Shown: positions 2,886 through 52,017, counted from the first letter of the stretch. The stretch: 64,000 bases of DNA from a virus (IMGVR_UViG_3300037602_000018:39050-103049); one strand, 5' to 3'. Numbers and translations are program-made. The notes: generated by a model not told the origin, from the letters alone.

Positions 2886-5800
2886 TTAGTAATAAAATTG
2901 CATCTTTTCTCTCACTTTATAATCAGCAAATTTCAATAATGGCACTAAATCTTGTACATCCTTTTTAAGTTTATATGTACCTTTTCTTATACCTGTTTCA
3001 TATTGTTGTATTTCAAGATGAAGTAAATCAGAGAATCCTTGTTCAAATACATCTACTACATTTTCTAATACACTTAATGATACAGCAGGATTTCTAAGAA
3101 TTCTAAATGTTTCTCTTGGATTTGCAAAGAAAGCAAGTTCAGAATATAATCTTCTTGTAAAAAATGCTGACCAGTAAATTCTAGTTTGAAAATCTTCATT
3201 AGATTCATCATCTCCTAATTCTTTAAGAGCTAAACTTGCAAATAAAGCTAATGCTATAAATCCAAATTCTGTAACAGCTTTCATAACGTTACCTTTCTGA
3301 TAATCAGATAAACTATCCCATGAACCTTGAGCAGCTTGTAAGTTAAATCCTAATTCTTTCATGCCTTTATAAACTCCAACAATTAATCTTGTTGTTGAAG
3401 TATAATATCCTTCTTTAAATTCCTTAGTTGCTTCAGAATAAAAAGTATTATCATCATTATCATCTTTAACATACTTAAAGCTTCTCCAACGTCTATCAAA
3501 CCCTCTTATAATAAACTTTCTAAACATCATAATAGCTTTACCAAACCAATATCTCTGAAGAATAGAATTCATTTCAGAATCATATTGTCCAAATAAATCA
3601 GCTTTGGTATCCCCTATTAAATTAGTGATGGATGTTTGACCTTCTATAGAATCGTGTGTATTTCTAATATCAAATTCATTATGTTTTACATTAGAATTTA
3701 ATTCAAGTTTACCATCTTTTACTGTATAGGCTTCTGCTAATGTCATAGCTTTAGATTTAGAAACTACATTACCTTTACTATCTATATATTCTCTTTTAGC
3801 ATTCATTACTTTAATACTGGATAATACAGCATACATAACAGAAGCATGTTGGTAATATTCAGAACCATTCATCATAAACCCTAAATTAGATTTTGATAAT
3901 AAAGCTTTTAATCTTGAATCTTTTGCAAATTCATTCTGTAGAATTTTAAAATCTGAAAGACCTTTAAACTTATCTAAAAGTAATTGAGTTTTACTATTTT
4001 GATTTACAGTACCTTGTTCAGTCATTATATTAGTAAAATCTTTCCAAAATAACTGTTCTCCTTTAAAGAAATTTTTAAGATATTTATTTCCTGTAGTTTC
4101 TATAATTTGAGAAATCTTACCTTGAATGGTGTTCACTATAGCAGCAGGAAAGTTAAAAGATAACATAAGATTACCAGTATAACCAGCTATGGCTCCAGAT
4201 AACTTATTTATATCCATTCCTAAAAAGTCTCCAGCCTCAATAGCTTTTATTCCATAAAGTCTGTTTTCTATAGTAGATTTAAGAGCCTGATACTCATTAC
4301 CCATATAGAAAGGCTTTTTAAGAGATTTATCACTTCTTAATAAATTAGTAATTTTCTCCTTGTTGATACCTTTAGTTTCAAAATATAATTTTTGAGCTGA
4401 AGCTTCTAATATTAATTCTACAGTAGGAGCAACATTCTTCATGTTGTAGTAATTAGTAGAAGTATAATTATTCATTAAGAATATAGTTCCTAAATCTAAT
4501 GATTGATCTTTAGGATTTACTTTACCTCTGTAATATATAGGTACATCTCTCTGAATATGATTGGAGGCATCTCCTTTCATCATAGTGCTTCCAAATTCTG
4601 TATCATCAGCTTGTTTTTTAGTATATTTATCAAGCTTCATCAGCTCTTTAACTTTACCTTCAGACATCATTTCAAAAGTAGATTTAGTTACAGAAGGTAG
4701 TTTTACAAAATAAGTACCATCTAAATCTTTATTTAATCTACTTCCTTTAGGTAATTTACCATCCTGAGCTAACACATCATTACGTAAGAAAGCTATAAAT
4801 TTAAGTTGAAATTTATTTAATTTACTAAATGCAGGATTTTTCCATTTATCTATAGGTTTACCTGCTTTAACATTAGCTTTTCTCCATGCTTTAAATTTAT
4901 TATTAGCTTCTTTATATTCTTTTGAATCTAATCCGTATTCTCTCTCAGCTTCTAATTGAGCTAAGTACAATTCAGTATTTTGATTATAATATTCTGCTTT
5001 ATATGGGCTTGTTAAATAATAATTACCATCTTCATCCTGTTGATATAAACCTTTATACATTTGTTCAGGATTTATACCAGAATTAGCTTTTTTAAATTCT
5101 AAAAACTCATCAATAAAATTCTTACGAGAATTCATAAATTGATTACGAGTTTTTTGTTGTCCTTCATCAAGTATTACAGATACTAACTGAATTACTTGAG
5201 AATTTAAACTTTTAGGGTCTTTAAGACTAGCCGTAGCATAACCCATATCAAAAGCTCCTTCTTCAAAATATTCATTCCATATATTAATTTCTTCCTGTAA
5301 AATATTATTTTTATTTTCTAATAGTTTTTCTATAATATATTTATCTTTTTCTTCGCCTTTTAAACCTAAGTTATTAGCTTCTTTTTGAAAATTATTTCTA
5401 TATTTAGATTCTACTTTAGTAGATTTTTGAGCCATTCTTTTAGAGAACTCAGATTTAATAATTTTATTTCTCTCTTTAATTAATTGATTTAATACATTAC
5501 TTGCTTCAGTAAAAGCTTTTTGTATTTCAGAATCATTAAGAATTTCATTAGCTTTATCAGCTACATTTTCAAAAGCTCCAAAATAATTATCAATAGCCAT
5601 AAGATATTCTGAAGTAACAGTTCCTTCAGCTATTTTTTCTTTTAGTCTTATTAAACTATGTTCAGAACTATTTAATACATAATCAGCAAATTTTAACATT
5701 GCTAATTTAGCATCTTTATCCTGTAAATCTTTTAATTCTGTATGTAAAGATTCTAATTCATTTTCATAAGATTTACCTTCTTCAGTAGCTTTTTTACCCA

Positions 5801-6890
5801 TTCTTGAGTTAAACCTTTTCTGAGAACCTAATCTTAATTCTACTATACTGGCAGCTTCATTAACTAATTGCTCCTGAGTTTTGATTTTTTCATCAAGTTT
5901 AACCTTTTTAGATTGTACATAATCAGATATTTCACCTTGAACTATTTGTTCACTAATTAAATCCTTGGCTAAACTTTTAAGCTCATTTCTACTTTGACCT
6001 GTTAATTTTTCTATAAATTCAAAGAACCATTCAGTAAATCTATTCCACCATGATTGTTTTTCAGTATTGTTCCATATTTGAGAACCTTCTAAACCTAATG
6101 CAGTAGCTACAATTTCTTTATCTAATCTTTCTCCATCTAATTCAGGATATAGTTCTATAATATCAGATTCTATCTTAGAGCCATTTAACTTAGCTCTAGC
6201 AGCTTTAATTCTTGTATTGGACATACCACCTATCATATCAATAAAGATGTGTCCAAACTCATGTATTACAGTGTCAGAGAATAATTTATTAGGATTAATC
6301 TTAATTACTGGTTTACCATATTGTTTAGTTAATGGGTCTGACTTAGCTAATACTTTACCAGATTCTTCCATAGTGTTATCTTCTAATACTACAGCATTAA
6401 ATTTAGCTTTTAAAAATTCTATTTGATCTTGTACTTCATCTAAACTTCTTAAATCTCCTTCAGAAAAATTTTGACTTTCCTCCTGCTCCATAAGAGCTTG
6501 GTCTCCATTGTAATAATTTATATCTCTTTTAAATTCTATATCAGAATTATCGAATAAAGATTCAGATTCTTTCTTATCTACTATATATAACATAGCAGAC
6601 TTACTATCAGAAGTTAATTTGTAAATAATTTTTTTATCTAAGAAATTTTTATTTACTTCTCTAATATCTCTACGAAGATTTTGTAATGTACCTCCATCTT
6701 TGCCTAAAGGAATAAACTTACCTTTCTGAGCATTATAAAGTTTAAGTAATCTTTTAAGTGCTTTATTAGGATTGGTCTTAGATTCACTCCAATTATATCT
6801 TTTATTCCATTCAAGCATTATTCTAGATTCACCTACTTCAGCAAGTAAATCTTTATATTCCTTAGAATTTTTGTTTGGACAAGCTATCAT
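2886..6890 (-). CDS. Virion cargo/ejection protein with zincin-like (HExxH) domain
   Basis: 1334 aa next to the vRNAP; DTVIHEFGH plus a downstream E; hydrophobic C-terminal segment (FGFIALALFASLAL). Confidence 0.7.
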   Translation of the reverse strand: MIACPNKNSKEYKDLLAEVGESRIMLEWNKRYNWSESKTNPNKALKRLLKLYNAQKGKFIPLGKDGGTLQNLRRDIREVNKNFLDKKIIYKLTSDSKSAMLYIVDKKESESLFDNSDIEFKRDINYYNGDQALMEQEESQNFSEGDLRSLDEVQDQIEFLKAKFNAVVLEDNTMEESGKVLAKSDPLTKQYGKPVIKINPNKLFSDTVIHEFGHIFIDMIGGMSNTRIKAARAKLNGSKIESDIIELYPELDGERLDKEIVATALGLEGSQIWNNTEKQSWWNRFTEWFFEFIEKLTGQSRNELKSLAKDLISEQIVQGEISDYVQSKKVKLDEKIKTQEQLVNEAASIVELRLGSQKRFNSRMGKKATEEGKSYENELESLHTELKDLQDKDAKLAMLKFADYVLNSSEHSLIRLKEKIAEGTVTSEYLMAIDNYFGAFENVADKANEILNDSEIQKAFTEASNVLNQLIKERNKIIKSEFSKRMAQKSTKVESKYRNNFQKEANNLGLKGEEKDKYIIEKLLENKNNILQEEINIWNEYFEEGAFDMGYATASLKDPKSLNSQVIQLVSVILDEGQQKTRNQFMNSRKNFIDEFLEFKKANSGINPEQMYKGLYQQDEDGNYYLTSPYKAEYYNQNTELYLAQLEAEREYGLDSKEYKEANNKFKAWRKANVKAGKPIDKWKNPAFSKLNKFQLKFIAFLRNDVLAQDGKLPKGSRLNKDLDGTYFVKLPSVTKSTFEMMSEGKVKELMKLDKYTKKQADDTEFGSTMMKGDASNHIQRDVPIYYRGKVNPKDQSLDLGTIFLMNNYTSTNYYNMKNVAPTVELILEASAQKLYFETKGINKEKITNLLRSDKSLKKPFYMGNEYQALKSTIENRLYGIKAIEAGDFLGMDINKLSGAIAGYTGNLMLSFNFPAAIVNTIQGKISQIIETTGNKYLKNFFKGEQLFWKDFTNIMTEQGTVNQNSKTQLLLDKFKGLSDFKILQNEFAKDSRLKALLSKSNLGFMMNGSEYYQHASVMYAVLSSIKVMNAKREYIDSKGNVVSKSKAMTLAEAYTVKDGKLELNSNVKHNEFDIRNTHDSIEGQTSITNLIGDTKADLFGQYDSEMNSILQRYWFGKAIMMFRKFIIRGFDRRWRSFKYVKDDNDDNTFYSEATKEFKEGYYTSTTRLIVGVYKGMKELGFNLQAAQGSWDSLSDYQKGNVMKAVTEFGFIALALFASLALKELGDDESNEDFQTRIYWSAFFTRRLYSELAFFANPRETFRILRNPAVSLSVLENVVDVFEQGFSDLLHLEIQQYETGIRKGTYKLKKDVQDLVPLLKFADYKVREKMQFYY

Positions 6891-9800
6891 TAATTACAAT
6901 ATTTTTTTATAAATTCATTTAATGCTGAGAAAGTATTAATACTTTCAAGTTCTTTTAATAATTCTGAAGAATTTTTAAGTTCACTAATATCTTCTATTAC
7001 TAAATTTTTTAACTCATTTAATTCTTCTGGAGTACCTTCAGATTGTGTTAATCTATTTTCTGAAGTTTCATCTTTATTCAACCATTCATCTAAAGTTTTA
7101 TCTTTAATTCTTTTAGCTACTGGTAATTTAGGAGAATTCATTTTAGGTAATACAAAGTCTAATTGTTCTGTATTAAATATACTTTCTGGTGTATATTCAT
7201 TAATTTTTAATCCTCCAGGTTGTTGAATACCTAACGGATTAACTCTGACATATACTCCGTTTTCCTGATTATCATTACCTACCCATTTATATAAATTAAA
7301 TTTATTTTTAGAACCTGTTTTTAAATAAGGATAATAAATTTTAGCTTTATCTAAAGAATCAATTCTGTAATTTTCTGAGTCTATAGAAAATACATCTTTA
7401 ATATTAAAATTTTTACCTTCTGTATTAACTACAGGTCTTTTTTTAATTCGATCTGCTAATTTAGGAATAATTTTATTATCTGCAATCTTTTGTTTATAAT
7501 AAACATCTAAAGCATTATCTAATAAATTTATATTGTTAGACTCCTCTATTTGTCTTATAAATCCTGATTCATACATCCATTCATGTGGGATATAAGGGAC
7601 TAAAGACATAATAGCATTTTGAAAACCTGTAGAATAAAACGCATGTTTAACTAATTTATCAGCTAAATCTGGGTGTGTTTGCATTAATTCTTTCCAACCC
7701 TGATACATCATATCATTAAAGTATTCAGAATCAGCTCTTAATTGATTAACTCCTATAAAAGAATATTCTCCAAAATTAAATTCCAGATTGTCTATGAATT
7801 CATTAGTACCTCTTAATTTATAAATTTGTTGAGGTAAGTCTGTAAATAAAGATTTAATATCAGTTTCTCTTAATACTGGAATCTGACTATAGAATATAGA
7901 ATAAGTGTCTTTAATTATATCTCTTAATAACTTATGATTAGTTAAAGAGTTATCTGTTTGTAAAGCAATAATATCCATAAATTCTGACTGTCTATAGATA
8001 TTTTGAAATAACTCTTTAGTAATTTCATCTATTAAATCAATGGAATTTCTATAGTAAGCTCCCATAAAAGTATTATCAAACTTAGCTAAGAAATTCTCAA
8101 CTAATCCTTCAGTAACTACTTTACCAAATAATTTTTTAGAAGCTATTAAAGTTGCTAAGTCATTACCAGCTCCATTAGTGTCTACCTTACTTGCTACTAC
8201 AGAATCTCTTAATGCTTTAGAAGCATCTTGAAGTTTAAGAAAAGTTTTAAGTATTTGAAGTTGATATTCTTTAGATTCTTCTAATGTTATAGTAGCTTCA
8301 TTTGAAAATTCAAATTTTAATGCCTTTTCAAAACTTTCAGTACTAAAATTACTTATAGGTTCTAATTCTTTAAATAATTTATCATTAGCACCATACTTAG
8401 CTAATACTTTATCTATAGGCTTAATTAATTTCCCATTAACATATTGTTTTTCATATACTTTACTTTCTTGTTTGTTAGTTTCTTTAACATAATCTACAAG
8501 AATAGGTTGCATTAAAAAACCATTAATCTGATCTATAGGTACTCCAGCTCTTGCTAATAAGAAAGCAACATTAGCTGTTAATGTATTATGATTACCTTTA
8601 GTAATATAGTTATCTTTAGCAATATCCACATAAGCGTTCAAAAATGCAGATAGTACCTGACTAATTTTTTGTTTACCATCAGTAGTATATTCCTGAGATA
8701 AATCTATTAATCCATTTAACTCATGTCCTACCTGATAATCTGTAGCTAACATAATCTCAGCTAATTGACTTAATGGATGGTCTACCACATGGTTAGCAGT
8801 TTGTCCTACACCAGCTTTACCACCCATGTAAGCAAACTTAATGTTTAACTGATTTACTCCATCAAAGAAATTTAATTGAGTTTGTTCAGATTGTGGTCTT
8901 AATGCATCTAATCTTTCAATAGAATCCTTTAAGAAGTTAGCATCTAAAGGAGTCATTTTATCTATATATGATTTAGGGTCATTAAGAATATCTATATAAG
9001 CCTGTATTAATTTATTCTTAATTCCTTTACTTCCTTGTTCAGCATATTGTATATTTTTAAATATCATTTCATCTGAATGAAATTCAGTCATGTATTTAAA
9101 TACAATTTTACTATATTCTGATTGACTGTATTTTTTATTAAAATCCTCTACAGTAAATAACTTATCATCTGGAATAAATCCTTCATTTATATACCAATTT
9201 TCATCTACTTCATATATACTATTAAGCATATCATCAGCAGATAAATTATAAGTATCTATAATATTTAAAGCTGTATTATACCATGATAAGTCTGGAACTG
9301 TATTAAATTCAGGCATCATTACATACATCTTATCAATATCAAAGTCACTACCTGTTTTAGTAGTAATTTCTGAATAAGGTACAATTGTATCTCCCATTAA
9401 GTCAGGTAGTATTCCAACAACTCTTAAATTATCATTAGAACTCATACCTTGGTTAGGAATACGATACCCCACTATATCAAATATTCTGGAGTCCACTACT
9501 TCCATTAACTCATTATAAGGTATTTCTCTCCAGTTAGGTATATATTTACTTAACCATCCACCAGATATTAATACTTCACCTGGTTTACCTTCTAATGGAG
9601 GAGCTAAACCTTTATCAGCTAATCTTTCAATTTCATCAGTTAACCAATAAATACCTTCTTTTTCAGTAGTAGTTAATTTATCTAATCCAAAACTAGACAT
9701 CTGAATTAATCCACCACCATTAGTAGTTATCTTAGTAGTTCTTTTATTAACCCATGAGAAAATTAAATTCTGAATTCTATTTAAATGTTGAGGTAAAGCT

Positions 9801-12800
9801 TCGTAACTAATACCTTTCTTTAAAGCTTCTATAATATTATTACCAGCTTTTCTATCTTCTAGTTCTCTGATAATTATATCATTAAGTACAGCTATATCTA
9901 ATTTAGAATCTAATTTTAATATTTTTCTAATTTCCTGAGCTTGCTCATTAGACAACTCTGAAATGTAATTATGAATATCCTGAACCAAATCACTGCCTAA
10001 TCTTCCATTATAATCTTCATCTAATTTAATATTAGCTAAAATATTCTTTTGAATCTGAGAAGCTATAGCAGTTTGTTTAATTCCCTTAGTAGGTAAATCC
10101 TGTTGTAATCTCCAATTTCTATTATCAAGTTCAAATGAATCTAAAGTAAACTGTCCTTTAAGTTCACCATCTTTTGAAATTTCAGAAGGAGTAAATGCAC
10201 CTACTTTAACACCATCTAAAGTGATAACTTCATCTACATTATCTATATCCATTCTAACGGCTAATTGAGCTAACTCTGTATCAGCAATCATTTGAGGAAG
10301 TAATACTCCTAATGAATATTTAAGATAAGTAGGTTTACCATCAACAAGACCATAATAAACCCCTTTAATAGGTTGGGTAGATTGAGTAAGAACTTTAAAT
10401 TCTTCTTGGCTTATTAAATCTTCTTTAGATAACTTTTGGTCTTTTTTAACTTTCTCAAAACCACTTTCTATCTTTTTATAAATTACATCAAGATCGCTAT
10501 TCCATCTACCTAATCTTTCTATAATGAATTTCCATCTCTTATGACTAGCCAATGCCTGAGCGTCAGTTCTGTTTACATTCTTATATTCCTGAACTACTTC
10601 ATTATCACCAAAGGCTTTTTCAAGTTGTTCATAATATAGACTTTGAAATATAGCATTATTAATTACAGAAGCATTAAACTTGTGATCATTTTTAGTTTCA
10701 CCTAATGATAATCTAAGTCCATCTATTCTAGCTGCTTGCGCTCTTTTATTAACATCAATAAGGTCTTTAAAATAAGACATATCACCATATATAGTGTTAG
10801 TCTGTTCATAATTCCCTATAATTGTATTAATAGTATAATCAGCTAATGCAGATTCAAATGAAGAATATTTATTTAAAATTGCTTTATCTATTACACTTCT
10901 TGTAATACCTTTATTTTCATTAACTACATGTTCTACTATACCTTGTTCTTTAATAGTATTTACAGAAGTTTGAATATCTTGTTTTAACTTTTCTCTTATA
11001 TAATCTTTTAAATTATCAAGCTTTTTAGGGTCTAACTTAGAAAAAGGTTTACCTGATTTACCATATAAGCCTAGTCTATTATTAAGTTCTTCTGAAATAA
11101 CATAAGGACTTAATTCTGAATATAAATGAGATTTAAAAGCATTTCCTACTAACTGACCTGCTTCATTAGTTATGTTACCTCTTTTATCTGTATGATAATA
11201 CATTACTCTGTCTTTTTCAGAGATAGGATTTTCTTTAAGTTCCATCCATGTATTATACATTCTTTTATATTCATCCTGAAAATGCCCTAATAGAATATTA
11301 ACAGGTTCTTCTGAAAGATTAATTTTCCCATTATTGAATTCTACTTTACCTTCTACAAATGGTAAACCTTCTAAAAACGTAATAGTAGATTTATCACCCA
11401 TAGTTAAAGTAGGATGCATAGTTTTTTGACCTCTCTTACTTCCTAATAATGCATTAATCTGAAAAGCTAATAAATCAGCAGGTTTAATATTTTTAGGGTC
11501 AGCAGCTAAATCTCCTACTTCATCTAGTCTTATAGATGAGAATATTCTTGTACGTATTTCTGGAGAATCTAAAAGATATTGTACCCATTTAGAATTAGGA
11601 TGTTTAACAACTAATTCAGTTAATTGAGATATATCTCCTTCTGCTATTCTTGTAAAGAAATCTGTAATCATTGAAGGACTACCATATTCCCAATATTGTT
11701 TATTATTTACAGTAACATTAGCTTCTGTTAATGAACCATTTAAATCTGATTCAGCTAAAGCTAATTCAGTTATTAAAGTTTCATTTGCAAAAGGATTATT
11801 AAACTTATTATTTACAAATAAAGGTTTTCTCAAACTAGTAAATAAATAAGTCTTTCCAGAGATAATATTTCTTATAGTTTCTTTCTCTCCATTTGTATTT
11901 CTTATATTCCTTAAAGATTCTTCTGTAACATCAATACCTATTTTACCTAATAAAGCCTTAAATTTTACTAAAGCCTCATCAGGTTGTTTTAATACAATTT
12001 CTTTTATTTCATTGTATTCATTAACAAGATTATCTACTTTATCTGTAGATATTTCATTTTTAACTACTAAGTCTGAATATAATAAATTATTACCCCATTT
12101 AGCAATTAATTTATCAGAAGGAGATATTCTTTGTGTATCAAATACTTTAAAGTTTTCTTTTCTTTTATTTAAAGTAGCACTAACATAATTAGACTGTTCT
12201 TTATCAAAAGCTAGTTTAAACTGTCTTTGAATATGTTTAGGGGCCTTATCAAGAGTATTTAACAACTGGTTCATCCAAGGTTTGTTACTCTCATAAGACT
12301 TCATTACATTAATCATTTTAGGTAAGACATCTACTATCTCACCATTAACTAATGTACTACTAAAACCAGCTAATTTAGGTTCAAGAAAACCCCATATTTC
12401 ATCAAAAGGTACAAAAGAATATCCTATAGTGGAAGGTTTTTCAGAAGGTATAAAAGACAACATTAATTTAATATTAAATGTAGCTTTGTCTTTACCGCTA
12501 CTTTCAAAAGAAGATTTAATATTTAATGGGTCAGTTCTATCTTCTTCATCTACAGCTTCTAAATCATCATTAATTGTTATACCTCTTTCTTTGTAAAACT
12601 TAAATACATTCTGATAGAAATCATTTTTAGCATTAGCTACTATTACAAGCATAGAAGCTTTTTCTCTATCATTAGATTCTTTAGCTTTTTGAAATTCCTG
12701 TTTAAGAAAATTATCTAAGATAGTATAGATATTCTTATCAGCATTAAACTTTTCAAAGTCTTCTCTGGTTAATAAATTTTCTCCAGAAATTTCATTATAT

Positions 12801-13162
12801 AAAGCATAAGCTAAGTTAGCAGTTACATCATTTACTTGCTTTGCAGATAAATTAGCAAACTTACCATCTATATAAAATCTATCTCCCTTTAGATTTTTAA
12901 AGAAATGATAACCATTTTCTTCAAATAATTCAGGTTCACCATTAACATCAGTAATGCCTTTTTCTTTAAACTCAAGATTATTTTCTTTATGAGCTTTTAC
13001 AAAGTCACCAAAAAATCTTTTAAATCTTTCTGTATGAATTACATTATAGATTCTTTTAACAGTTTCTTCAGGAACTTTACTTCTTTTACTTAATGCTTCA
13101 TCTATTTTAGGAGCTAGTAAAGAAGGATTATTATTAGTATGGGTATCGTAATTACATCTCAT
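6890..13162 (-). CDS. Virion-associated single-chain DNA-dependent RNA polymerase (crAss-like, phi14:2 gp66-type)
   Basis: 2090 aa; GYRIPNQG...TGSDFDIDKMY catalytic motif; TDAQ, PIKGVY, LKYS and AYVDIAKD motifs. Confidence 0.92.
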   Translation of the reverse strand: MRCNYDTHTNNNPSLLAPKIDEALSKRSKVPEETVKRIYNVIHTERFKRFFGDFVKAHKENNLEFKEKGITDVNGEPELFEENGYHFFKNLKGDRFYIDGKFANLSAKQVNDVTANLAYALYNEISGENLLTREDFEKFNADKNIYTILDNFLKQEFQKAKESNDREKASMLVIVANAKNDFYQNVFKFYKERGITINDDLEAVDEEDRTDPLNIKSSFESSGKDKATFNIKLMLSFIPSEKPSTIGYSFVPFDEIWGFLEPKLAGFSSTLVNGEIVDVLPKMINVMKSYESNKPWMNQLLNTLDKAPKHIQRQFKLAFDKEQSNYVSATLNKRKENFKVFDTQRISPSDKLIAKWGNNLLYSDLVVKNEISTDKVDNLVNEYNEIKEIVLKQPDEALVKFKALLGKIGIDVTEESLRNIRNTNGEKETIRNIISGKTYLFTSLRKPLFVNNKFNNPFANETLITELALAESDLNGSLTEANVTVNNKQYWEYGSPSMITDFFTRIAEGDISQLTELVVKHPNSKWVQYLLDSPEIRTRIFSSIRLDEVGDLAADPKNIKPADLLAFQINALLGSKRGQKTMHPTLTMGDKSTITFLEGLPFVEGKVEFNNGKINLSEEPVNILLGHFQDEYKRMYNTWMELKENPISEKDRVMYYHTDKRGNITNEAGQLVGNAFKSHLYSELSPYVISEELNNRLGLYGKSGKPFSKLDPKKLDNLKDYIREKLKQDIQTSVNTIKEQGIVEHVVNENKGITRSVIDKAILNKYSSFESALADYTINTIIGNYEQTNTIYGDMSYFKDLIDVNKRAQAARIDGLRLSLGETKNDHKFNASVINNAIFQSLYYEQLEKAFGDNEVVQEYKNVNRTDAQALASHKRWKFIIERLGRWNSDLDVIYKKIESGFEKVKKDQKLSKEDLISQEEFKVLTQSTQPIKGVYYGLVDGKPTYLKYSLGVLLPQMIADTELAQLAVRMDIDNVDEVITLDGVKVGAFTPSEISKDGELKGQFTLDSFELDNRNWRLQQDLPTKGIKQTAIASQIQKNILANIKLDEDYNGRLGSDLVQDIHNYISELSNEQAQEIRKILKLDSKLDIAVLNDIIIRELEDRKAGNNIIEALKKGISYEALPQHLNRIQNLIFSWVNKRTTKITTNGGGLIQMSSFGLDKLTTTEKEGIYWLTDEIERLADKGLAPPLEGKPGEVLISGGWLSKYIPNWREIPYNELMEVVDSRIFDIVGYRIPNQGMSSNDNLRVVGILPDLMGDTIVPYSEITTKTGSDFDIDKMYVMMPEFNTVPDLSWYNTALNIIDTYNLSADDMLNSIYEVDENWYINEGFIPDDKLFTVEDFNKKYSQSEYSKIVFKYMTEFHSDEMIFKNIQYAEQGSKGIKNKLIQAYIDILNDPKSYIDKMTPLDANFLKDSIERLDALRPQSEQTQLNFFDGVNQLNIKFAYMGGKAGVGQTANHVVDHPLSQLAEIMLATDYQVGHELNGLIDLSQEYTTDGKQKISQVLSAFLNAYVDIAKDNYITKGNHNTLTANVAFLLARAGVPIDQINGFLMQPILVDYVKETNKQESKVYEKQYVNGKLIKPIDKVLAKYGANDKLFKELEPISNFSTESFEKALKFEFSNEATITLEESKEYQLQILKTFLKLQDASKALRDSVVASKVDTNGAGNDLATLIASKKLFGKVVTEGLVENFLAKFDNTFMGAYYRNSIDLIDEITKELFQNIYRQSEFMDIIALQTDNSLTNHKLLRDIIKDTYSIFYSQIPVLRETDIKSLFTDLPQQIYKLRGTNEFIDNLEFNFGEYSFIGVNQLRADSEYFNDMMYQGWKELMQTHPDLADKLVKHAFYSTGFQNAIMSLVPYIPHEWMYESGFIRQIEESNNINLLDNALDVYYKQKIADNKIIPKLADRIKKRPVVNTEGKNFNIKDVFSIDSENYRIDSLDKAKIYYPYLKTGSKNKFNLYKWVGNDNQENGVYVRVNPLGIQQPGGLKINEYTPESIFNTEQLDFVLPKMNSPKLPVAKRIKDKTLDEWLNKDETSENRLTQSEGTPEELNELKNLVIEDISELKNSSELLKELESINTFSALNEFIKKYCN

Positions 13163-13165
13163 TTA

Positions 13166-16100
13166 TTAACACCTTTCATTATTTTGATTATCATCCTTAG
13201 CCTTATTAGCTTCTTTATTCTTCCTAGTATCTAAATCCATATTAGATTTACCACTTAATCCTTGATTAAATGAGGCCTCTAACTCATCCATAGATTCTTC
13301 TGTTTTAAAATCTTCGTTCATGTCGTAATTACTTACTTGTTCTTTAAATAAATCTGCTACAGATTCTTTATTATCTAAACCTTCATTATCTGAAGTAATA
13401 CCAGCTTTTTTAAGGACTTCAGTTCTATCTCCATTATTTTCTTTCCATTTCATCTCAGCACCTGTAGTAACTGAGATTATTTGTCCCTTATTATTTACTA
13501 CAAATTTTCTTCCTTTATGTTCTACAACTTTAGCTCTACCTTGTTGTACTGCAAAGTTAGCAAATATTTTTCTTCTATCTACAGTATCTTTACTAAAAAC
13601 TTCTTTACCTTTACTATTAAATATTTTACTTCCTTTAATAGTATATGTTTGCTTAGATTTTCCTTTAGGGGTATAATTAATAGTGTTGAAAGGTTCATTA
13701 TATAAATCATTAACAGATACTGCATTATCTAATCCTTCTTCTTTACTTACTTTTAATTCAGGTTGTTTAGTTTCTGTAATTGGTTTTAAAAACATACTAC
13801 CGCTATAAATACCTTGTCCTTGTTTAAAAGGTAAATCAACATCTACATCTGTAGTAAGTATATTTGAATTAACTATATGTTCCCTATATGCTTTATTTTT
13901 AAATTTAGAAGCTTTTATTTGATACCTTTTTTTAGTTTTTAAATATTCTACTACAGATTCAAAATCTGATCCAGTTGCTAAAGTATTGTTATTTCCTCCG
14001 TAATATAGTTTTCCTTTACTTAAATATAACTCAGATTGTAAACCAGCAGTTTTATTTCCAAAATAAACAAAATAATCTATTACTTCATTATAAGTAGGAG
14101 AAGTATTGATTAATTCTTTATAATCAGGAAGTATTGTCTGTAATTGAGATAACAGATTGTCAGGCATTAAAGTATTCCAATTTACTTTATTCTGAAGTAT
14201 ACTTTGAAATACAGTTGCTACAAATCTTGCATCTTCATCACTTAAAGTTTTAACATTAAGTTTAATAGGAATTTTAACTCCTTTATTATTAGTTGCTTTA
14301 TAAAATATTAAACCTGAACCTGCAACTACTTCGTTACCTGATTTATAAGTTACTTCAGGTAAATCATTAAAGTCTTTATCATAATTTCTATTTTTAACAG
14401 ACCAATCAAATCTAACATATCTTCCTTCAACATTAGTCATAACAAAGTCTGATTCTTTTATAGAACCAAATACTTGTTCAATGTTATTATCTTGACGTAC
14501 ATTATTGATTTCTAAAGGATAATATCCTTCTACTTCACTTATTACTTCGTTACCTTGTTTAAGTTGGTTAAGAATATTTTTCCTAAACTCTGGATTTAAT
14601 TCATTTTTACCAGATCTTATTGTATATAAATAAGTAAATACTTCCTGACCATTAATAGTAATAGGTTCTCCATCCTTTAAAAAAGTAACTTTTAAAGCTA
14701 CATTATTTACAAAGTCTGTAAGTTCAGTAGGAGTAATAGTATCATTTAAAAACTTTTCAATTAACTGATTATATCTTTCTGTAACTTCTTCTCCACTAGC
14801 AAAATGTCTATCTCCAAAAGTTATTTTTACTTTAGTACCTATTTTATCTACAGGACTATAATACCATTCTTTAAACGCAGGTTTATCTTCTAAATAACTA
14901 GTAGCTATTTGTACACCTGTTTGATTAGTTTGTACAGACTTAGCTTTCTCTTTAATCTCATTAATTTCATTACCTGACTTAGTTTCAATATTATCTAGTT
15001 CAGAAGTAACATTTTCTACAGGCTCTACTTTACTGGTTTCTTCTTTATTTAAAGTTTCAGCTAAAGCTTCTTTAACTTCTATATTTTCTTCACTAACTTG
15101 TTCTTCACCAGTTCTTCTAGATAATTCTTCTTTATCATCTTCTGTTTGAGCAGCTTTATCAGCTTGTTCTTTAGCTTGATTTTCTAAGCTTTCTCTTTTA
15201 TTACTAACAACTTCTTTTAGTTGAGATAAATTACCAGATTGTTCAAGTTCATCTTCAAGAGCATCTAAAGAATCTAAAGATTTAATACTATTAATATTAT
15301 TAGTTAATTTAGTATTTTCAGCTTCTCTCTGATATTCAGGTGAAGTTAATTTACTAAATTCTTTCTCAAGCTTTTTAATGTTAAGTTCTGCTTGTCTTTT
15401 AGAAGCTAAAGCATTAGTTAATTCAGGATGATTAGGTAAAGTACTTATAATACTTTTATCATTGTCTATAATATCTTTAGAAGTACCTTCAGGATATTCA
15501 ATTTTATCTTTTAGCTTGGTTAATGTTTTATCAATTTTTTCTAAAGTTTCTTTATAACTATCATCTCCAGCAACATCAGCTTGCATTTGTGTTAACACTT
15601 TAGCTGATTCTAAAGCTACTCTTTGAGAATCTCTTTCAAATATTTCAAGACCTACAGCACTTAAATCTTCTATTTGAGGATATTCAGCTTTAGCTTTACT
15701 TAACTTAGAATCAGATTCTTGTCTAATTCTAACCATATTTTCTAAGTTATGTCTATTAACTGCAAGTAATCCCGCAGTAGAACCATACTTATTAGCATAC
15801 TTTAAATATTGATTTCTAATCTTAACAGCATCTTCTTTTAACTTCGGAGCTATTTCTTTAGCCCAATCTACAGACATATCTTCTATACCATATTTTTCTT
15901 TATATTCCTGTAAATCTTGTTCTTTAAGGTTTTCAAGATTATCAAAAAATTCTATATGGTTATCAAACGTATCTGTTTGTACTGCCTCTAAAGTCATAGC
16001 TAAATTCCATGCTTTTCTAGCTTCTAATGAAGCAGATAGATTTCCTTCAGCATCAGCCTTTTTAATATTTTCATGTAAAACAGCAAAATGAGTACCTCTC

Positions 16101-17308
16101 TTATTAATTACATCTTGTTGTTTTTCTAAGAAAGCTTTTCTTTTTTTATTATTTATAAGATTATTCAAGCCTTTACCAGCCATTTGAAAAACAGCTCCAC
16201 CAGCAGCTCCAGCAGTAACTGAATTCCAGAATTCTGTATCTCCAAGATAACCTTGCATTCTTTCTGTAAATGCAGATTCATCTATAAGTCCAGCATTCAT
16301 TTTTATATTATATGCAGATTCTTCAGCAGATACAAACTGATAAGCTTCTTCTAAACCTTCATAAGCAGATTGTTTTGCTAATTCTTTAGCTTTACCATAT
16401 TTACCTAACTTCTTAGCATTACGTCCTGACTTAGATACAAATTGTCCAGTCATAGGATTAAATAATTTACCTATAGCTAAGTATTGAGGAATATCCTGAG
16501 CTAACATAGCCCATCCTTTTATATAAGTACTCTTAGCTCCTTCCAAAGCTAATTCTTCTATTTCTTCTGGACTATATAATTCTCCAGTATCTTTATTAAC
16601 TTGTCCTTCTAACTCTTGCTTTAATTGTTCATAGGTTCCATAAGCTTCTAAGTTATTTTCAATTTGTCTGGATATAGTAGCTTGTCCAATACCATTTAAA
16701 GTATATTGAGTTCCTTTAGATAACTTTCCAAGAACTGAAGCACCTCTACTCATACCAGCAGCCTTACCTAACATAGATAAAGCTTTCATTGTACCAGTAG
16801 CAGGTATTAACATACTTAATGTACTACCTATAGACACCATGTTAGCAAAGAAGTTCTCAGAATTTCCTAACATAAATCCATCTGGATTACCTTGATAAAT
16901 AGGGTTAGATTCTCTTGAACCTTCTTTAATACTTCTACCTAAGTCTAATAAAATATTTTCCTGATCTACAGCAAGTAAATTACCTTTAGCTAATTCTCCT
17001 AAATAACCAAATCCTTCTATAGTACCACCTACTACTTCACCTGCTAATTGTACAGCAAAGTTACCTAGTTCATGATGAAAAGGTTGATTAGTTGCTCTAA
17101 TCTGATTTAATTCTCCAGCGTCTAAAGAAGTCTTAGGAATATTAATATCAAATTGAGAACTACCTAATCTATCTCCAGCAAACGTAGTATTGCTATCAGA
17201 GGTAAAATTAGTATCGAGAATTTTATTTAAATATTTACTTTGATATTTAGGCTTTTCTATTTCAGGAGATTGTTTATTATCAAAGTACTCTGTTAAAGTC
17301 TTAGCCAT
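13166..17308 (-). CDS. Virion cargo/ejection protein
   Basis: 1380 aa; Gly/Ala-rich hydrophobic N-terminal segments (EGLEEAYQ, GAAGGAVF), coiled coils, position in the cargo block. Confidence 0.7.
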   Translation of the reverse strand: MAKTLTEYFDNKQSPEIEKPKYQSKYLNKILDTNFTSDSNTTFAGDRLGSSQFDINIPKTSLDAGELNQIRATNQPFHHELGNFAVQLAGEVVGGTIEGFGYLGELAKGNLLAVDQENILLDLGRSIKEGSRESNPIYQGNPDGFMLGNSENFFANMVSIGSTLSMLIPATGTMKALSMLGKAAGMSRGASVLGKLSKGTQYTLNGIGQATISRQIENNLEAYGTYEQLKQELEGQVNKDTGELYSPEEIEELALEGAKSTYIKGWAMLAQDIPQYLAIGKLFNPMTGQFVSKSGRNAKKLGKYGKAKELAKQSAYEGLEEAYQFVSAEESAYNIKMNAGLIDESAFTERMQGYLGDTEFWNSVTAGAAGGAVFQMAGKGLNNLINNKKRKAFLEKQQDVINKRGTHFAVLHENIKKADAEGNLSASLEARKAWNLAMTLEAVQTDTFDNHIEFFDNLENLKEQDLQEYKEKYGIEDMSVDWAKEIAPKLKEDAVKIRNQYLKYANKYGSTAGLLAVNRHNLENMVRIRQESDSKLSKAKAEYPQIEDLSAVGLEIFERDSQRVALESAKVLTQMQADVAGDDSYKETLEKIDKTLTKLKDKIEYPEGTSKDIIDNDKSIISTLPNHPELTNALASKRQAELNIKKLEKEFSKLTSPEYQREAENTKLTNNINSIKSLDSLDALEDELEQSGNLSQLKEVVSNKRESLENQAKEQADKAAQTEDDKEELSRRTGEEQVSEENIEVKEALAETLNKEETSKVEPVENVTSELDNIETKSGNEINEIKEKAKSVQTNQTGVQIATSYLEDKPAFKEWYYSPVDKIGTKVKITFGDRHFASGEEVTERYNQLIEKFLNDTITPTELTDFVNNVALKVTFLKDGEPITINGQEVFTYLYTIRSGKNELNPEFRKNILNQLKQGNEVISEVEGYYPLEINNVRQDNNIEQVFGSIKESDFVMTNVEGRYVRFDWSVKNRNYDKDFNDLPEVTYKSGNEVVAGSGLIFYKATNNKGVKIPIKLNVKTLSDEDARFVATVFQSILQNKVNWNTLMPDNLLSQLQTILPDYKELINTSPTYNEVIDYFVYFGNKTAGLQSELYLSKGKLYYGGNNNTLATGSDFESVVEYLKTKKRYQIKASKFKNKAYREHIVNSNILTTDVDVDLPFKQGQGIYSGSMFLKPITETKQPELKVSKEEGLDNAVSVNDLYNEPFNTINYTPKGKSKQTYTIKGSKIFNSKGKEVFSKDTVDRRKIFANFAVQQGRAKVVEHKGRKFVVNNKGQIISVTTGAEMKWKENNGDRTEVLKKAGITSDNEGLDNKESVADLFKEQVSNYDMNEDFKTEESMDELEASFNQGLSGKSNMDLDTRKNKEANKAKDDNQNNERC

Positions 17309-19143
17309 TATTTTTGTTTATTATCTAAAAACATAGGTGTATAATAAGATTTAACTTTATTCATTTCTCTTTGTTGAATTTCGTTTAAACCTACTTTTTG
17401 TTTTTCTTCTTTAGGTAGATTTAAGACCTGATTTTTAGATAAACCTGATTTTGCTTCTACTACATAAGGTACATATTCATAAGTTCCGTCTGAAGCAGGA
17501 TTAAGTTCATTTACATAATACAAAGATACTCCTCTTTGATTAGTAGGTTCTTCTTCAAATCTCTTACCTTGTAAAGTATTCTGTAATAGTTTATGACTTA
17601 ATGATGTATTAGTTTTAATATTATCATCATTCTCAATAAATACTGTAGATAACTCTCCATCACTATTTTTAAGATTAGCTACATAACTTCCTGGAGTTGG
17701 GCCTATCATAGTAATACCAGCAATCTGTCCAGTTTCCTGTAAAGCAGCATAAAGCTCTGAAGCATCATCATAACCTAATTCTTCAGCAGCCTGATCTATA
17801 TTTGTAGGAGAATATTTTTTACCATTAACTGAAATTGATCTCATTGATATATCACCTACTTTACCATCTTTAGTACCTAATATTCTTTCAGTTTCATATT
17901 CCATATTAGAATTAGTAGGTCTCCATACCTGACCATAACCCTGAGTTAATTTTTGTTCAGCTTGACTAATAGCATTCCATACTTCCTGATCTGATTTACC
18001 TCGTAATATAGGATCTGAATTCCTAACTTGATTAATCATTTGTCTTTGCTGTTTGAACTTATCTTTAGCTTTTACTAATCCTTTATCAGTAGTCGCCCCA
18101 GGTAAACCAGCAGTAAAACTTTCAGACATTTTTCCTACAGGGTCTTTTGAAACAATAGGTTCAACTAGTTGACCATTTATAAATTCAGGAGAATCTAAAG
18201 TATTCATAGTTTGACTAGCAGGTAATGGTACATTACTCATTGTTAATGGTGACCATCCCTGAGCCTTTAAAGCTTCTTCACGTTTCATCATATCAACAAA
18301 GAAAGGACTGCCTTGAAATCTCATATCCCTGTCTAAAGAAACAGATTTAGGACTGTTACGTACAAGAGCTGTATTTACAGCATTTTGTAACTGACTATTC
18401 ATATATTGTTCTGGATCAGTGCCTCTTAAATAAGCACTATCTCTTAAATATGAAACTACTTCTGGACTATTTTGTAGATAATTCTTTACTACAAAATCTG
18501 TAACTTCACTAGGAATTCCTTTAACTGTTTGACCATTTTTATACCAAATATAATCACCTGTAGTAGGATCAATTTGTTCAGTTCTTTCCCAACCTGTAGA
18601 AGTCTCTATAGATTGTTGTGGAATATCTTTAGCTAAGTCTAATGCAATTTTTTGTACATCTTGATAATCTGAAGGAGTAAATCCATTAAAATTACCAGAT
18701 TCATAACCTTTATAATCCTGTAAAGACTTTTGTAAAGCTAATTGTCTATCATCTCTTAGAATTTTGTCATTAGACATTAATTCTTTAGCATAATTATTAT
18801 ATGCTTGATAGTTCTGGCCTATTTGATATAATGCTCCACCAGGATTCATTAAATCATCTCTCTTACGTTTAAGATCAATTAATTGATTTCTTAAAGATGA
18901 ATTATATCCTTTTCTATTTAATTCATCTGTAATAGCATTAATACCTTGATTAATTTCTGTTTGATATTTATCTCTTGCAGCTATGTCTTTAGTTAAAGCA
19001 TCCTGATAAACTTGTTGACTTTGAGCTGCTGTATATAATTGATCCTCTGCTTGTTGATAAGCTAAAGGTAAATAAGCATATTCTTCAAATGAAGTAGGTT
19101 GAAATTGAGGATAAATTCTACGTTGACTGTATCTATTTATCAT
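17308..19143 (-). CDS. Virion cargo protein
   Basis: 611 aa; N-terminal NRYSQ...P.SFEE..LP followed by coiled coil; position in the cargo block. Confidence 0.65.
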   Translation of the reverse strand: MINRYSQRRIYPQFQPTSFEEYAYLPLAYQQAEDQLYTAAQSQQVYQDALTKDIAARDKYQTEINQGINAITDELNRKGYNSSLRNQLIDLKRKRDDLMNPGGALYQIGQNYQAYNNYAKELMSNDKILRDDRQLALQKSLQDYKGYESGNFNGFTPSDYQDVQKIALDLAKDIPQQSIETSTGWERTEQIDPTTGDYIWYKNGQTVKGIPSEVTDFVVKNYLQNSPEVVSYLRDSAYLRGTDPEQYMNSQLQNAVNTALVRNSPKSVSLDRDMRFQGSPFFVDMMKREEALKAQGWSPLTMSNVPLPASQTMNTLDSPEFINGQLVEPIVSKDPVGKMSESFTAGLPGATTDKGLVKAKDKFKQQRQMINQVRNSDPILRGKSDQEVWNAISQAEQKLTQGYGQVWRPTNSNMEYETERILGTKDGKVGDISMRSISVNGKKYSPTNIDQAAEELGYDDASELYAALQETGQIAGITMIGPTPGSYVANLKNSDGELSTVFIENDDNIKTNTSLSHKLLQNTLQGKRFEEEPTNQRGVSLYYVNELNPASDGTYEYVPYVVEAKSGLSKNQVLNLPKEEKQKVGLNEIQQREMNKVKSYYTPMFLDNKQK

Positions 19144-19145
19144 TC

Positions 19146-20993
19146 TTAATTATTCTTTATGAGATTACCTTGTTTATCATAAACATTACCAAATCTATCT
19201 ATAGTATATCCTACTGGTAATTGATTAACCATTTGTAAGTTTCTTTCATCTTGCCCAATAGCTCCTATATTTTGTCCTAAATTAGAAGTAGAATCCATAA
19301 GTAATGAACTATATTGGCCTTGGTCTCTATCATTCATATCAGACACCTGCATTCTCATACCTTGATTACGAGCATTTTGTTGGTAATTCATTTCTTCTAC
19401 TCTGGCTCTTTCTCTGGCGTCTAATTCATCAGATTGCATATTAGCATTAGCTAAAGCTTTTTGAGTATTTAGATTTATTCCTAATAAATTACTCATTAAT
19501 GCTCCTGAGTTACCTTGAGAAGTATTTACTAATTGTCTATTGATAGCTCCTTCTTGAGATTCAATATCTCGTTTAATTTGGTCTCTATTTACAAGATTAG
19601 CTTTAAACTTATTTCTTGTATTAAACATATTCAAATCTTTACCTTCTGGTTTATTAGCCAATATCATAGCTAAGTTACCTAATTCAGCAACTGCTGGAGC
19701 ATATCTTAAATAACTTCCATAAACATCTGAACTTTTATTTACAGGTGGAGTTATTTGTTCTATTTGATTATAAGAGGGGTCTTGAGTTATATCGTTACTA
19801 AAGTCAATATTACCAGTCTTTAATACTGGTTGACCTGTAGCATACTCATTTCCAAATGAAGGGTCTGAAGTTATAGGTAATTGATAATCATTTCCATATA
19901 AAGAATTAATAGGTAAATAAGTATCATTGTTAAATATACCAGAGTTATTAAATTCATCTGGGTCATGCATGGGGCCTCCTAAAGCATATATATTTTTACT
20001 ACCATATTTTCTAGCTCCTTTATCTAATTGATAATTTTTTTGCATTGGGTTTTCACCTCTTTGATAAGATTCTAATGCTCTACGTGAATACTCAGCTTTA
20101 GTTTTAGAATCTAAACTATCGTACATAGAATAAACACTATCTGAAGTATCTCCTACGTTTGCTAAATTTTTCATAGACTGAGCAAGATAAGGTAACATAA
20201 AAGATTCTTTACGAACCATTTCTTCTCTGGAAGTGTATTTAGGGCCACCCATAGCCATTTGTTGTTGAGGTTGATCTATATTATGTACTTTTTTATAAGA
20301 TTCCTGAGCATCTATAAGATTCTTAGTTTCTTTCTTTAACATATTTTTAGCATAAGGGTCATTAGGTCTTTCTTTATCATTCATCATTTTAGATACATCT
20401 GCAAAAGATTTCCCAATAGCTTTTTTAGGTAAACCATATTCTTCAGCTAATTTTTTATTAACTTTTAGTCTATCTGAAAATACATAATTGTCAGACATAG
20501 TTTCTCCTTCTTCTACACTAGCATTAGAGCCAATGGGGATACCCCCAAGTTTGTTTTGCTCGTGAGTACCCCCTTCAGTAAATTCAGTTAACTTACCTCC
20601 ATTGGCATAGATATATCCCCCATTTTTAAATACTTTATTCTCATCTATCAGGCCCCATGTAGAAGAAGTGAGTAATTGTCTACCTGTTCCTTCCCAAAAA
20701 CCATGTTCATCTATATTAGATGTTAAACTTTTATGACTAAAATTACCAGCAGCTCCTTTAGCCATTCTTTCACCTAAATCATCTCCTTTATCTACAGTAT
20801 AATCTCCACCAGTTAAAGCATCCGCACCTGTATTAGACATTTGTATAAAGGGAGCAGCCATAGGAATCATTGAACCTACACTATTTGCAAGTTGATCACT
20901 GGTTTGACTTAATTGCCCATAGCTATCTATATCCTCTTGGGTAAGTCCACCATAGGCTTTTTTATATTTAGATTTAGAGTTTTTATATTTCAT
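19146..20993 (-). CDS. Virion cargo protein with repeated [FYMA]xxGG motifs
   Basis: GGTHEQN..GGI.....VEEGE.....VFSDRL block; Gln/Asn-rich C-terminus; directly follows the muzzle gene. Confidence 0.75.
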   Translation of the reverse strand: MKYKNSKSKYKKAYGGLTQEDIDSYGQLSQTSDQLANSVGSMIPMAAPFIQMSNTGADALTGGDYTVDKGDDLGERMAKGAAGNFSHKSLTSNIDEHGFWEGTGRQLLTSSTWGLIDENKVFKNGGYIYANGGKLTEFTEGGTHEQNKLGGIPIGSNASVEEGETMSDNYVFSDRLKVNKKLAEEYGLPKKAIGKSFADVSKMMNDKERPNDPYAKNMLKKETKNLIDAQESYKKVHNIDQPQQQMAMGGPKYTSREEMVRKESFMLPYLAQSMKNLANVGDTSDSVYSMYDSLDSKTKAEYSRRALESYQRGENPMQKNYQLDKGARKYGSKNIYALGGPMHDPDEFNNSGIFNNDTYLPINSLYGNDYQLPITSDPSFGNEYATGQPVLKTGNIDFSNDITQDPSYNQIEQITPPVNKSSDVYGSYLRYAPAVAELGNLAMILANKPEGKDLNMFNTRNKFKANLVNRDQIKRDIESQEGAINRQLVNTSQGNSGALMSNLLGINLNTQKALANANMQSDELDARERARVEEMNYQQNARNQGMRMQVSDMNDRDQGQYSSLLMDSTSNLGQNIGAIGQDERNLQMVNQLPVGYTIDRFGNVYDKQGNLIKNN

Positions 20994-27232: not shown

Positions 27233-28159
27233 TCAGTTTTTAACAAATTCTTTATAGGCTGTGTTAGAAATTTTATAATCATGTTTACAATCATTACATT
27301 TCATTAATCTTTGTATTGTTCCTGCTTTAGTAATAACAGATTTAACATATTCTACATCTTCTGAACCACAATTAGGACAACTCCATTTAGCTTTACCTTC
27401 ATGTACTCCTACATGTGTGTTAGTATCTACATAAGATTGAATCTTATGATATATATCCTCTAGTAAAACTACATCTTGGTTACAGTAAGTTACCATTTGT
27501 TTTAAAGCTTCTTTATCGTTTTTAAAACAAACTTTTTCCCATAAATCAGATTCTGTTTTATATTTTTCACCTATGTTTAAATATTTACCAATATCATTCA
27601 AACGATTACTAGGAAAGTTAAAATAGTATCTCGCTTTCTGTAAAGTATCTAAAGATTTAATAACTGAATTAAAAGGAATTCCGTGATAAAGACATCTTGT
27701 TCTAAGCCATTTAATATCAAATTTATCTGAATTATGGCCTATAATTTCATCAGCCTTATTTAATTCTTTAACAAAAGTTTCTAATAATTTTTTATCATTC
27801 CATAAATCCTGCCATGTAATATTATAAACAGTATCTTCATTTTCCCATTTCCAAGATACACATATTATTGAAGCATGATTAATAATATTATGATAACCCA
27901 ATTTAACTTTAAAACCAGGTCGCCAAAACCAACCTATACAAGGAGAAGTTTCAATATCAAAAAACATTCTTTTAATACTATGTTTTTTTGGTTTATTCTC
28001 TGGCTCTGATTGAGTATTAAATAATCTTAAAGCTTCAGCACAATCTTCTATAGATACGTCATATCCTTTCTTTTCAAGAATTAAAGCTAATCTAAATTTA
28101 CCTTCTTTTTTATATCCTGGTTTAGAATATAAAAATTTTAAAATTCCTTCTACTTTCAT
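27233..28159 (-). CDS. DnaQ/RNase H-like 3'-5' exonuclease with C-terminal Zn ribbon
   Basis: FFDIET, IGHNSDKFD and YCNQDV (Exo I-III motifs); CPNC...CNDC. Confidence 0.85.
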   Translation of the reverse strand: MKVEGILKFLYSKPGYKKEGKFRLALILEKKGYDVSIEDCAEALRLFNTQSEPENKPKKHSIKRMFFDIETSPCIGWFWRPGFKVKLGYHNIINHASIICVSWKWENEDTVYNITWQDLWNDKKLLETFVKELNKADEIIGHNSDKFDIKWLRTRCLYHGIPFNSVIKSLDTLQKARYYFNFPSNRLNDIGKYLNIGEKYKTESDLWEKVCFKNDKEALKQMVTYCNQDVVLLEDIYHKIQSYVDTNTHVGVHEGKAKWSCPNCGSEDVEYVKSVITKAGTIQRLMKCNDCKHDYKISNTAYKEFVKN

Positions 28160-39083: not shown

Positions 39084-39469
39084 TATTTAAACATTACAAT
39101 TCGTAAATAGTTTGTACCTAACATTTGATATGGAAACGTAATAGTACCTTGTGATAAATCTACAACAGCTTCTACTGAAGTATATCCTTCTTGACCATTT
39201 AAATAAACAAATACTTTTGAATCAGGATAACCTGCATAATCAGCAGCATCAGTAGTTAATTCATAAACATCAGTATCTGTAATTTCACCTGTTTCTACTA
39301 TAGCTCCTAAAGAACTACTCACTAAATCTATAATACCTGAAAAAGGTATTTTTATATTTTCATTAGAAAATTCATTATGTCCTACCAAATAAAAGAAAGA
39401 ATATTGTGGAGAAGCTATAATTTGAGCTACTGTTTGTAAAGTAAATTCTGAAAATTTTTTCTGTGCCAT
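39083..39469 (-). CDS. Putative fibre adaptor protein
   Basis: MAQKKFSEF N-terminus shared with 28174-29172; VFVYLNGQ...GTITF domain. Confidence 0.55.
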   Translation of the reverse strand: MAQKKFSEFTLQTVAQIIASPQYSFFYLVGHNEFSNENIKIPFSGIIDLVSSSLGAIVETGEITDTDVYELTTDAADYAGYPDSKVFVYLNGQEGYTSVEAVVDLSQGTITFPYQMLGTNYLRIVMFK

Positions 39470-39816
39470 TATTCTGAAATTATATTTTTACCACTTTCTG
39501 TAATTAGACAATAACCTTCTTCTGAAATTATATTGTTTTCATGACAATCTTCTGATACATCTACTATATTACTTATTCCACTAGAAGTAATACAATCTTC
39601 ACATATATCTTGTATTTTATCAATAAGACAATTTATTACTTCTGAATCTAAATTATTTTTAAGTAATAAATATTCAATATCTTGATAAGTATTAATTAAT
39701 TTAGTATTAAAAGAAGTGTTTCCTTTTTTTAATTTATTACATATTCTTTCTCCTGAAACTTTAGGACAAGTTTCAGTATCATTTAGAATATTTTTTATGT
39801 CAGTTATATTATACAT
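39469..39816 (-). CDS. Cys-rich tail hub-like protein
   Basis: Multiple Cys; C-terminal IISEEGYCLITESGKNIISE. Confidence 0.55.
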   Translation of the reverse strand: MYNITDIKNILNDTETCPKVSGERICNKLKKGNTSFNTKLINTYQDIEYLLLKNNLDSEVINCLIDKIQDICEDCITSSGISNIVDVSEDCHENNIISEEGYCLITESGKNIISE

Positions 39817-51883: not shown

Positions 51884-51943
51884 TATTTTACAGACTTTTT
51901 TTAAATTTCATATATATATGTTTTACTTCTTTATTAAATTCTG

Positions 51944-52017
51944 CGCTGAAGATAGGATTTGAACCTATGACCTTGGAGTTAACAGCTCCCTGCTCTAACC
52001 AACTGAGCTACTTCAGC
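51944..52017 (-). tRNA. trnN: tRNA-Asn(GTT)
   Basis: Reverse complement GCTGAAG TA GCTC AGTTGGTTA GAGC A GGGAG CT-GTT-AA CTCCA AGGTC ATAGG TTCAAAT CCTAT CTTCAGC G; G73 discriminator; no encoded CCA. Confidence 0.92.

Follow-up and report, generated by a model that had tools for sequence, protein, structure and literature searches.

We analysed a window of DNA, by which we mean the whole stretch of 64,000 nucleotides (nt) taken from a 103-kb crassvirus genome (IMGVR_UViG_3300037602_000018:39050-103049). In its cargo block (2886-20993), three adjacent giant proteins, designated A, B, and C, of which B is the virion RNA polymerase (RNAP), carry cysteine (Cys) only at the ends that face one another. 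Our favoured reading, to which we assign a probability of about 0.78, is that these facing Cys form a head-to-tail disulfide chain that stands in for a peptide bond; this draws on sequence comparison among crassviruses and on analogy with a disulfide seen in the virion of cyanophage A4.

Cysteine placement in the cargo block

The block consists of five minus-strand open reading frames (ORFs) encoding proteins of 615, 611, 1380 (A), 2090 (B), and 1334 (C) amino acids (aa), 6,030 aa in total. Only four Cys were found over this whole length, namely A1380, B3, B2089, and C4. Cys makes up 0.85% of the remaining ORFs of the window, which would predict about 51 in the block (Poisson P about 2e-17). 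With the number of Cys fixed at four, one would fall in each of the four facing five-residue ends with a probability of about 1e-11, a value calculated post hoc. Chain protein A (13166..17308, minus strand) has its sole Cys as the last residue (13169..13171, minus strand), and this tail Cys faces Cys3 (13154..13156, minus strand), the head Cys of B (6890..13162, minus strand), across the A-B junction. At the B-C junction, the only other Cys of B, Cys2089 (6896..6898, minus strand), is the tail Cys and faces Cys4 (6879..6881, minus strand), the head Cys and only Cys of C (2886..6890, minus strand). The ORF count and the reading of these four codons confirmed what an earlier note on this DNA had tallied: four Cys at adjoining termini and none in the 611- and 615-aa proteins.

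The same note had labelled B an RNAP and C a zincin protein, and both labels were upheld. B is a homologue of the phi14:2 RNAP gp66 (match to PDB 6VR4, E 7e-209; 30% identity over 94%) and carries DFDID near residue 1273, the DFDxD motif of gp66-type RNAPs. C is a homologue of phi14:2 gp65 (E 1e-108) and of crAss001 gp49, with HEFGH, an HExxH zincin-like motif, at residue 210; A is a homologue of phi14:2 gp67 (BLASTP E 1.6e-14), and crAss001 gp47 is its counterpart by position. No solved relatives of A and C were found by sequence. The block lies in its usual crassvirus position, with the genes for cargo protein 1, the muzzle, and ring proteins upstream of the chain genes. In the known systems, phi14:2 gp67-gp66-gp65 and crAss001 gp47/gp50/gp49, which are homologous to A-B-C and occupy the same place after the muzzle, C1, and C2, the proteins are packaged in the virion and delivered; phi14:2 gp66 enters the host and transcribes early genes. 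Homologues of the block proteins have been found in virions by mass spectrometry (MS), and from this and from transcription assays on homologues we infer packaging and delivery of the window proteins as well: by analogy, A, B, and C are probably packed in the head and injected into the host.

The heads and tails that bear these Cys differ in kind. In the window, Cys4 of C opens a C-P-N-x-N sequence, after which residues 10-32 are predicted to form a pair of helices (predicted local distance difference test score, pLDDT, 73), and one profile recovers the heads of both B and C, which thus make up a single profile family. C-P-N heads were found 39 times at B-C junctions versus 2 times elsewhere, a distribution that hints, at the level of sequence, at junction specificity. 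When the B tail and the C head were searched for close relatives, a single useful one emerged (L257); the B tail has in common with it a helix-like pattern closed by Cys2089. On either side of the junctions, Cys is the only invariant residue. Iterative tail profiles did not grow past their seed, and tail features compared by head type gave weak signals (P 0.007-0.03 at 2 of 8 positions, uncorrected and from related lineages); specificity of tails for heads is thus unsupported.

The two remaining proteins of the block would stand outside the chain. The 611-aa cargo protein (17308..19143, minus strand) is C2-like by position only, and the 615-aa cargo protein 1 (19146..20993, minus strand) matches the Pfam family crAss_CARG1.

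Conservation across crassviruses and behaviour on gene fusion

With a profile of the RNAP catalytic region, 240 further loci were gathered, reassigned stop codons being permitted; A starts and C ends were marked by profile search, and dereplication at 70% RNAP-core identity gave 136 clusters. A junction was counted if Cys lay ≤12 residues from the end on both sides. Paired Cys were present at 116 of the 121 inner junctions, one of the 116 (crAss002) depending on an internal Met. At the outer ends, Cys was detected at none of 66 A starts (N-terminal ends) and at 1 of 86 C ends (C-terminal ends), and a C-terminal Cys was likewise absent from the products of all 46 genes directly upstream of A. 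The three phi14:2 proteins contain only four Cys: C1797, the last residue of gp67, Cys3 and Cys2179 of gp66, and Cys3 of gp65. Nine IMG/VR loci obey this pattern, which was also found in Suoliviridae, Intestiviridae including the prototype crAssphage, gut Steigviridae, and Flavobacterium phage FpV4. Internal Cys are lacking altogether in 66 of 126 clusters. The earlier proposal hinged on the terminal Cys being conserved in relatives, and it survived this comparison.

Four of the five exceptions among the inner junctions were explained. In L111, the only Cys is at -25, similar to the positions in L018 (-32) and L201 (-23); in L086, C is broken and its first piece does begin with Cys4; L235 has an assembly gap; and L046 has an apparent break inside a fused gene. 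The fifth, L181, is weighed below. A separate observation concerns gene annotation: the annotated start of crAss002 gp33 (L015:17232-17400) is probably 32 codons early, and Met33 opens an M-S-C head that resembles the one in crAssphage gp44.

The placement of the Cys codons was also examined. Of 119 junction ends, 116-118 have a TGY triplet in frame, whereas the other frames have one at only 8-20; the tail Cys lies at -1 to -9 and the head Cys at 2 to 11, and the gaps between the genes range from -25 to >20 nt. Judged from these sequences, the rule is one that works on protein, not DNA.

The fate of the pairs when genes fuse or split was followed in the 52 clusters with both ends identified. 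A, B, and C are separate genes in 24 of them, AB is fused and C separate in 19, A is separate from a BC fusion in 5, AB stands with a further-split C in 2, and all three are fused in 2, so that in 28 of the 52 a peptide bond joins the RNAP to at least one of its neighbours A and C. Fusion of the three proteins into one polyprotein in some phages had been described before (bioRxiv 10.1101/2020.03.07.982082). The Cys of a fused seam are absent from the fused proteins (A-B, B-C, and A-B-C): many fused proteins of 3,300-5,300 aa have only one Cys, placed at whichever end still adjoins a partner, and terminal Cys are absent from the full A-B-C fusions L149 and L152, the latter of which (5649 aa) has no Cys at all. 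Conversely, additional splits are accompanied by additional Cys pairs (L038, L235, L255, L256); polymerase-internal breaks that resemble introns or frameshifts gained no pair (L033, L040, L131, L161). Two of these loci, L033 (11308-16790) and L040 (12444-15929), also hold extra ORFs (573 and 1161 aa) with a similar 'IE.EG.E' start between the polymerase pieces and C, which are possibly inserted elements.

Two further observations bear on how the pieces relate to one another. The zincin-motif domain opens C in the window and B in L003 and closes A in crAss001-like Bcn23 and in crAssphage, as expected if A, B, and C act as one polyprotein cut at varied sites. In crAss001, the pairs are kept (gp47 C2339 with gp50 C5; gp50 C2404 with gp49 C5) even though gp47 and gp50-gp49 lie on different strands, which indicates that the order is A-B-C by homology and not gene order. 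The earlier note had the three giants linked head-to-tail in gene order: the link was strengthened by conservation, loss on fusion, gain on splitting, and the A4 example described below, and the gene-order part fell with crAss001 gp47.

A candidate disulfide chain and its rivals

The closest precedent comes from cyanopodophage A4, in whose cryo-electron microscopy structure a Cys1715-Cys5 disulfide holds the C-terminal helix of gp27 in its inserted position within gp26 (PMC12002296; PDB 9K2V according to that paper); the authors considered that this disulfide stabilises the packed ring structure (PMC12002296). In the A-4L genome, the gp27 and gp26 genes are adjacent (L258:16766-25269), and Cys1715, third from the end of the 1717 aa of gp27, and Cys5 of gp26 are the sole Cys of the two proteins. 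The pair is kept in Pf-WMP3, Pf-WMP4, CHP58, and TR020 (L259-L262), and all five Saffermanviridae genomes checked have it. A4 (Saffermanviridae) and the phage of the window both have adjacent giant ejection proteins that are otherwise free of Cys and have facing terminal Cys. They differ in that A4 has one link between two proteins and no RNA polymerase, whereas in crassviruses there would be two links, rising to three or more in some relatives, that flank the RNA polymerase and vary with gene fusion. Neither phmmer nor profile searches matched A4 gp27/gp26 with crassvirus A, B, or C, and Foldseek and VIA-align searches with a model of C residues 701-1334 (pLDDT 89) gave nothing above background (best Z 6.6 over 58 residues); the two Cys pairs may therefore be convergent, although remote homology is also conceivable. 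The A4 disulfide raises confidence in disulfides in crassviruses and lowers the novelty of the bond itself: such a link is already known in A4, and what is new is its probable crassvirus form, flanking the RNA polymerase.

On this basis, A, B, and C would belong to a single cargo unit, delivered by the virion and about 550 kDa in mass (the three proteins of crAss001 sum to about 690 kDa), which has been cut into one to five genes in the course of evolution. Each cut would leave a short, variable tail bearing one Cys on the upstream piece and a small helical head, with one Cys at about residues 3-5, on the downstream piece. Tail and head would dock during capsid packing, in the reducing cytoplasm, and the paired Cys would oxidise to an intermolecular disulfide upon virion maturation or upon release and lysis. 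The disulfide would replace the missing peptide bond and so fix the A-B-C order and stoichiometry during unfolding and passage through the tail and cell envelope; single-file threading through the tail would be plausible, and the constrictions on the ejection route of crAss001 are <50 Å (PMC10172136). Other Cys would have been purged or strongly reduced to prevent wrong disulfides. On arrival in the cytoplasm, the links would be reducible by host thiols, and activity is probably independent of this reduction. Functional analogies exist in bacterial toxin A-B chains, in which one disulfide keeps the cargo chain on the delivery chain until the cytoplasm is reached, and in modular polyketide synthases, whose short terminal docking domains order separate giant proteins; neither parallel implies homology.

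Redox-gated release of the RNAP, with which the earlier note had completed its scheme, is the weakest part and unlikely to be essential, since a peptide bond cannot be cut by reduction in the 28 of 52 architectures that fuse RNAP to a neighbour, unless proteolysis substitutes. A simple motif scan of the genome outside the window and a Pfam search of ten small window proteins, which together were not exhaustive, found no thiol-oxidoreductase-like CxxC protein. Cys purging itself has a parallel in the Schitoviridae (N4, DEV), where the loss of Cys from ejected proteins has been attributed to passage through the oxidising periplasm (PMC11445570). Their ejection operon, with its Cys-free virion RNAP, resembles the crassvirus block in this purge and differs in having a single polypeptide of ~3,500 aa that contains the polymerase, of another class, together with flanking domains (PMC11445570); no conserved terminal Cys is reported there (PMC11445570).

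A more far-reaching version combines these elements. The cargo would be one covalent thread of about 0.5-0.7 MDa, held by modular, junction-specific Cys pairs and exiting in single file with A first; the covalent order would set the ejection order, host cytoplasmic thiols would then cut the links, and the device would also have arisen in the unrelated, short-tailed Saffermanviridae as a general rule for injecting proteins in order. Taken whole, this combination is tentative and rather doubtful.

Among the alternatives, the one that survives best is that the facing Cys bind a metal such as Zn, with the other two ligands coming from the junction of a neighbouring copy. It predicts the identical pairing rule, and a metal site would be compatible with assembly in the reducing cytoplasm, in which the heads are packed and in which, as is well established, disulfides should not form. 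However, no conserved His or second Cys was found near the terminal Cys on either side (a His lies near a Cys in 20 of 116 junctions), and the analogous A4 pair was modelled as a disulfide. The metal site that the earlier note had offered as an alternative is thus disfavoured for want of a conserved second ligand, and we regard it as improbable. The terminal Cys might instead signal packaging or anchoring by reacting with a small molecule or with a virion protein other than the neighbouring cargo protein, as the poor conservation of the tails would allow; yet A starts and C ends are nearly free of Cys and complete fusions lack terminal Cys, all of which must still be packaged, and both Cys of a seam arise and disappear together, which makes such a signal quite improbable.

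That fusion and splitting are interchangeable in evolution, and that B of the window ends in Cys-Asn, would also fit Cys that drive protein trans-splicing or thioester ligation into a true peptide bond, in the manner of a split intein. This is very improbable: the head Cys, at 2-11, is usually not at the N-terminus, 0-8 residues, and in some loci as many as 31, come after the tail Cys, and neither a conserved intein His-Asn nor an intein profile match was found. Split inteins were accordingly rejected on the N-terminal nucleophile, the His-Asn, and the HINT domain. An incidental encoding of the Cys by a DNA or RNA junction signal (translational coupling, readthrough, or frameshift), which an excess of TGT at the terminal Cys and the same reading frame of A and B in the window, with only TAA TAA between them, might suggest, can hardly be right and was rejected, because the Cys codons are strictly in frame with both codons in use, the gene gaps vary in length and cover every frame, and the pairs persist with genes on opposite strands.

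Several points weigh against the disulfide chain. The crassvirus link is a prediction from sequence, the bond itself having been seen in the A4 virion, and gp47, gp49, and gp50 are unresolved in the crAss001 map (PMC10172136). The tails are diverse, with little common sequence by which each could be matched to the right head. At L181:1634-14401, the junction preceding the polymerase gene lacks terminal Cys, and L180 has a Cys at -7 on the outer C-terminal end; neither case is explained. The lineages are related, so the counts overstate the number of independent events. Some gut and rumen lineages (L195, L196, L202, L212, L223, and others) have 20-33 internal Cys with the terminal pairs kept, which shows that the purge is not universal; it may be relaxed in anaerobic hosts. 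Moreover, 92% of the terminal Cys codons are TGT, compared with 77% T-ending codons at other nearby two-fold positions, a small bias that has no explanation.

For the disulfide chain, the published crassvirus data provide some context. Virions of crAss001 contain inter-subunit disulfides in the tail and the portal vertex, and their MS used reduced and non-reduced samples (PMC10172136). Neither the work on the phi14:2 polymerase (bioRxiv 10.1101/2020.03.07.982082; PDB 6VR4) nor that on crAss001 (PMC10172136) mentions terminal Cys or a link between cargo proteins, and the words cysteine and disulfide do not occur in two comparative crassvirus papers. In the literature covered, from which subscription papers fell outside, no description of crassvirus cargo in connection with cysteine or disulfides was found.

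Other features of the window and meaning for crassviruses

Elsewhere in the window, two small Cys-rich ORFs adjoin major structural genes (39469-40400, minus strand); they have 7 Cys in 115 aa and 9 Cys in 194 aa, the latter with a C-terminal C-G-C-G-C run, and gave no Pfam match. A tRNA-Asn(GTT) gene (51943-52017, minus strand) is the sole Rfam/ARAGORN match in the window. Among the tail genes, an RNase H-fold 3'-5' exonuclease-like gene with a zinc ribbon was found (27233-28159, minus strand).

How several large proteins are ejected in order via a narrow tail is an open question in podophage-like viruses. The crAss001 structure paper concluded that the order of the cargo probably results from packing and from interactions between cargo proteins (PMC10172136); in the present analysis, four specific residues per phage emerge as candidates for such an interaction. 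The viral order concerned includes the most abundant human gut phages, and the cultured phages phi14:2 and crAss001 are available for tests. The pairs also provide a rule for annotation: paired terminal Cys mark true splits and start codons in the cargo block, and where they are absent, introns, frameshifts, or assembly breaks are to be suspected. Should the tail/head pairs prove portable, they would lend themselves naturally to linking large proteins in order.

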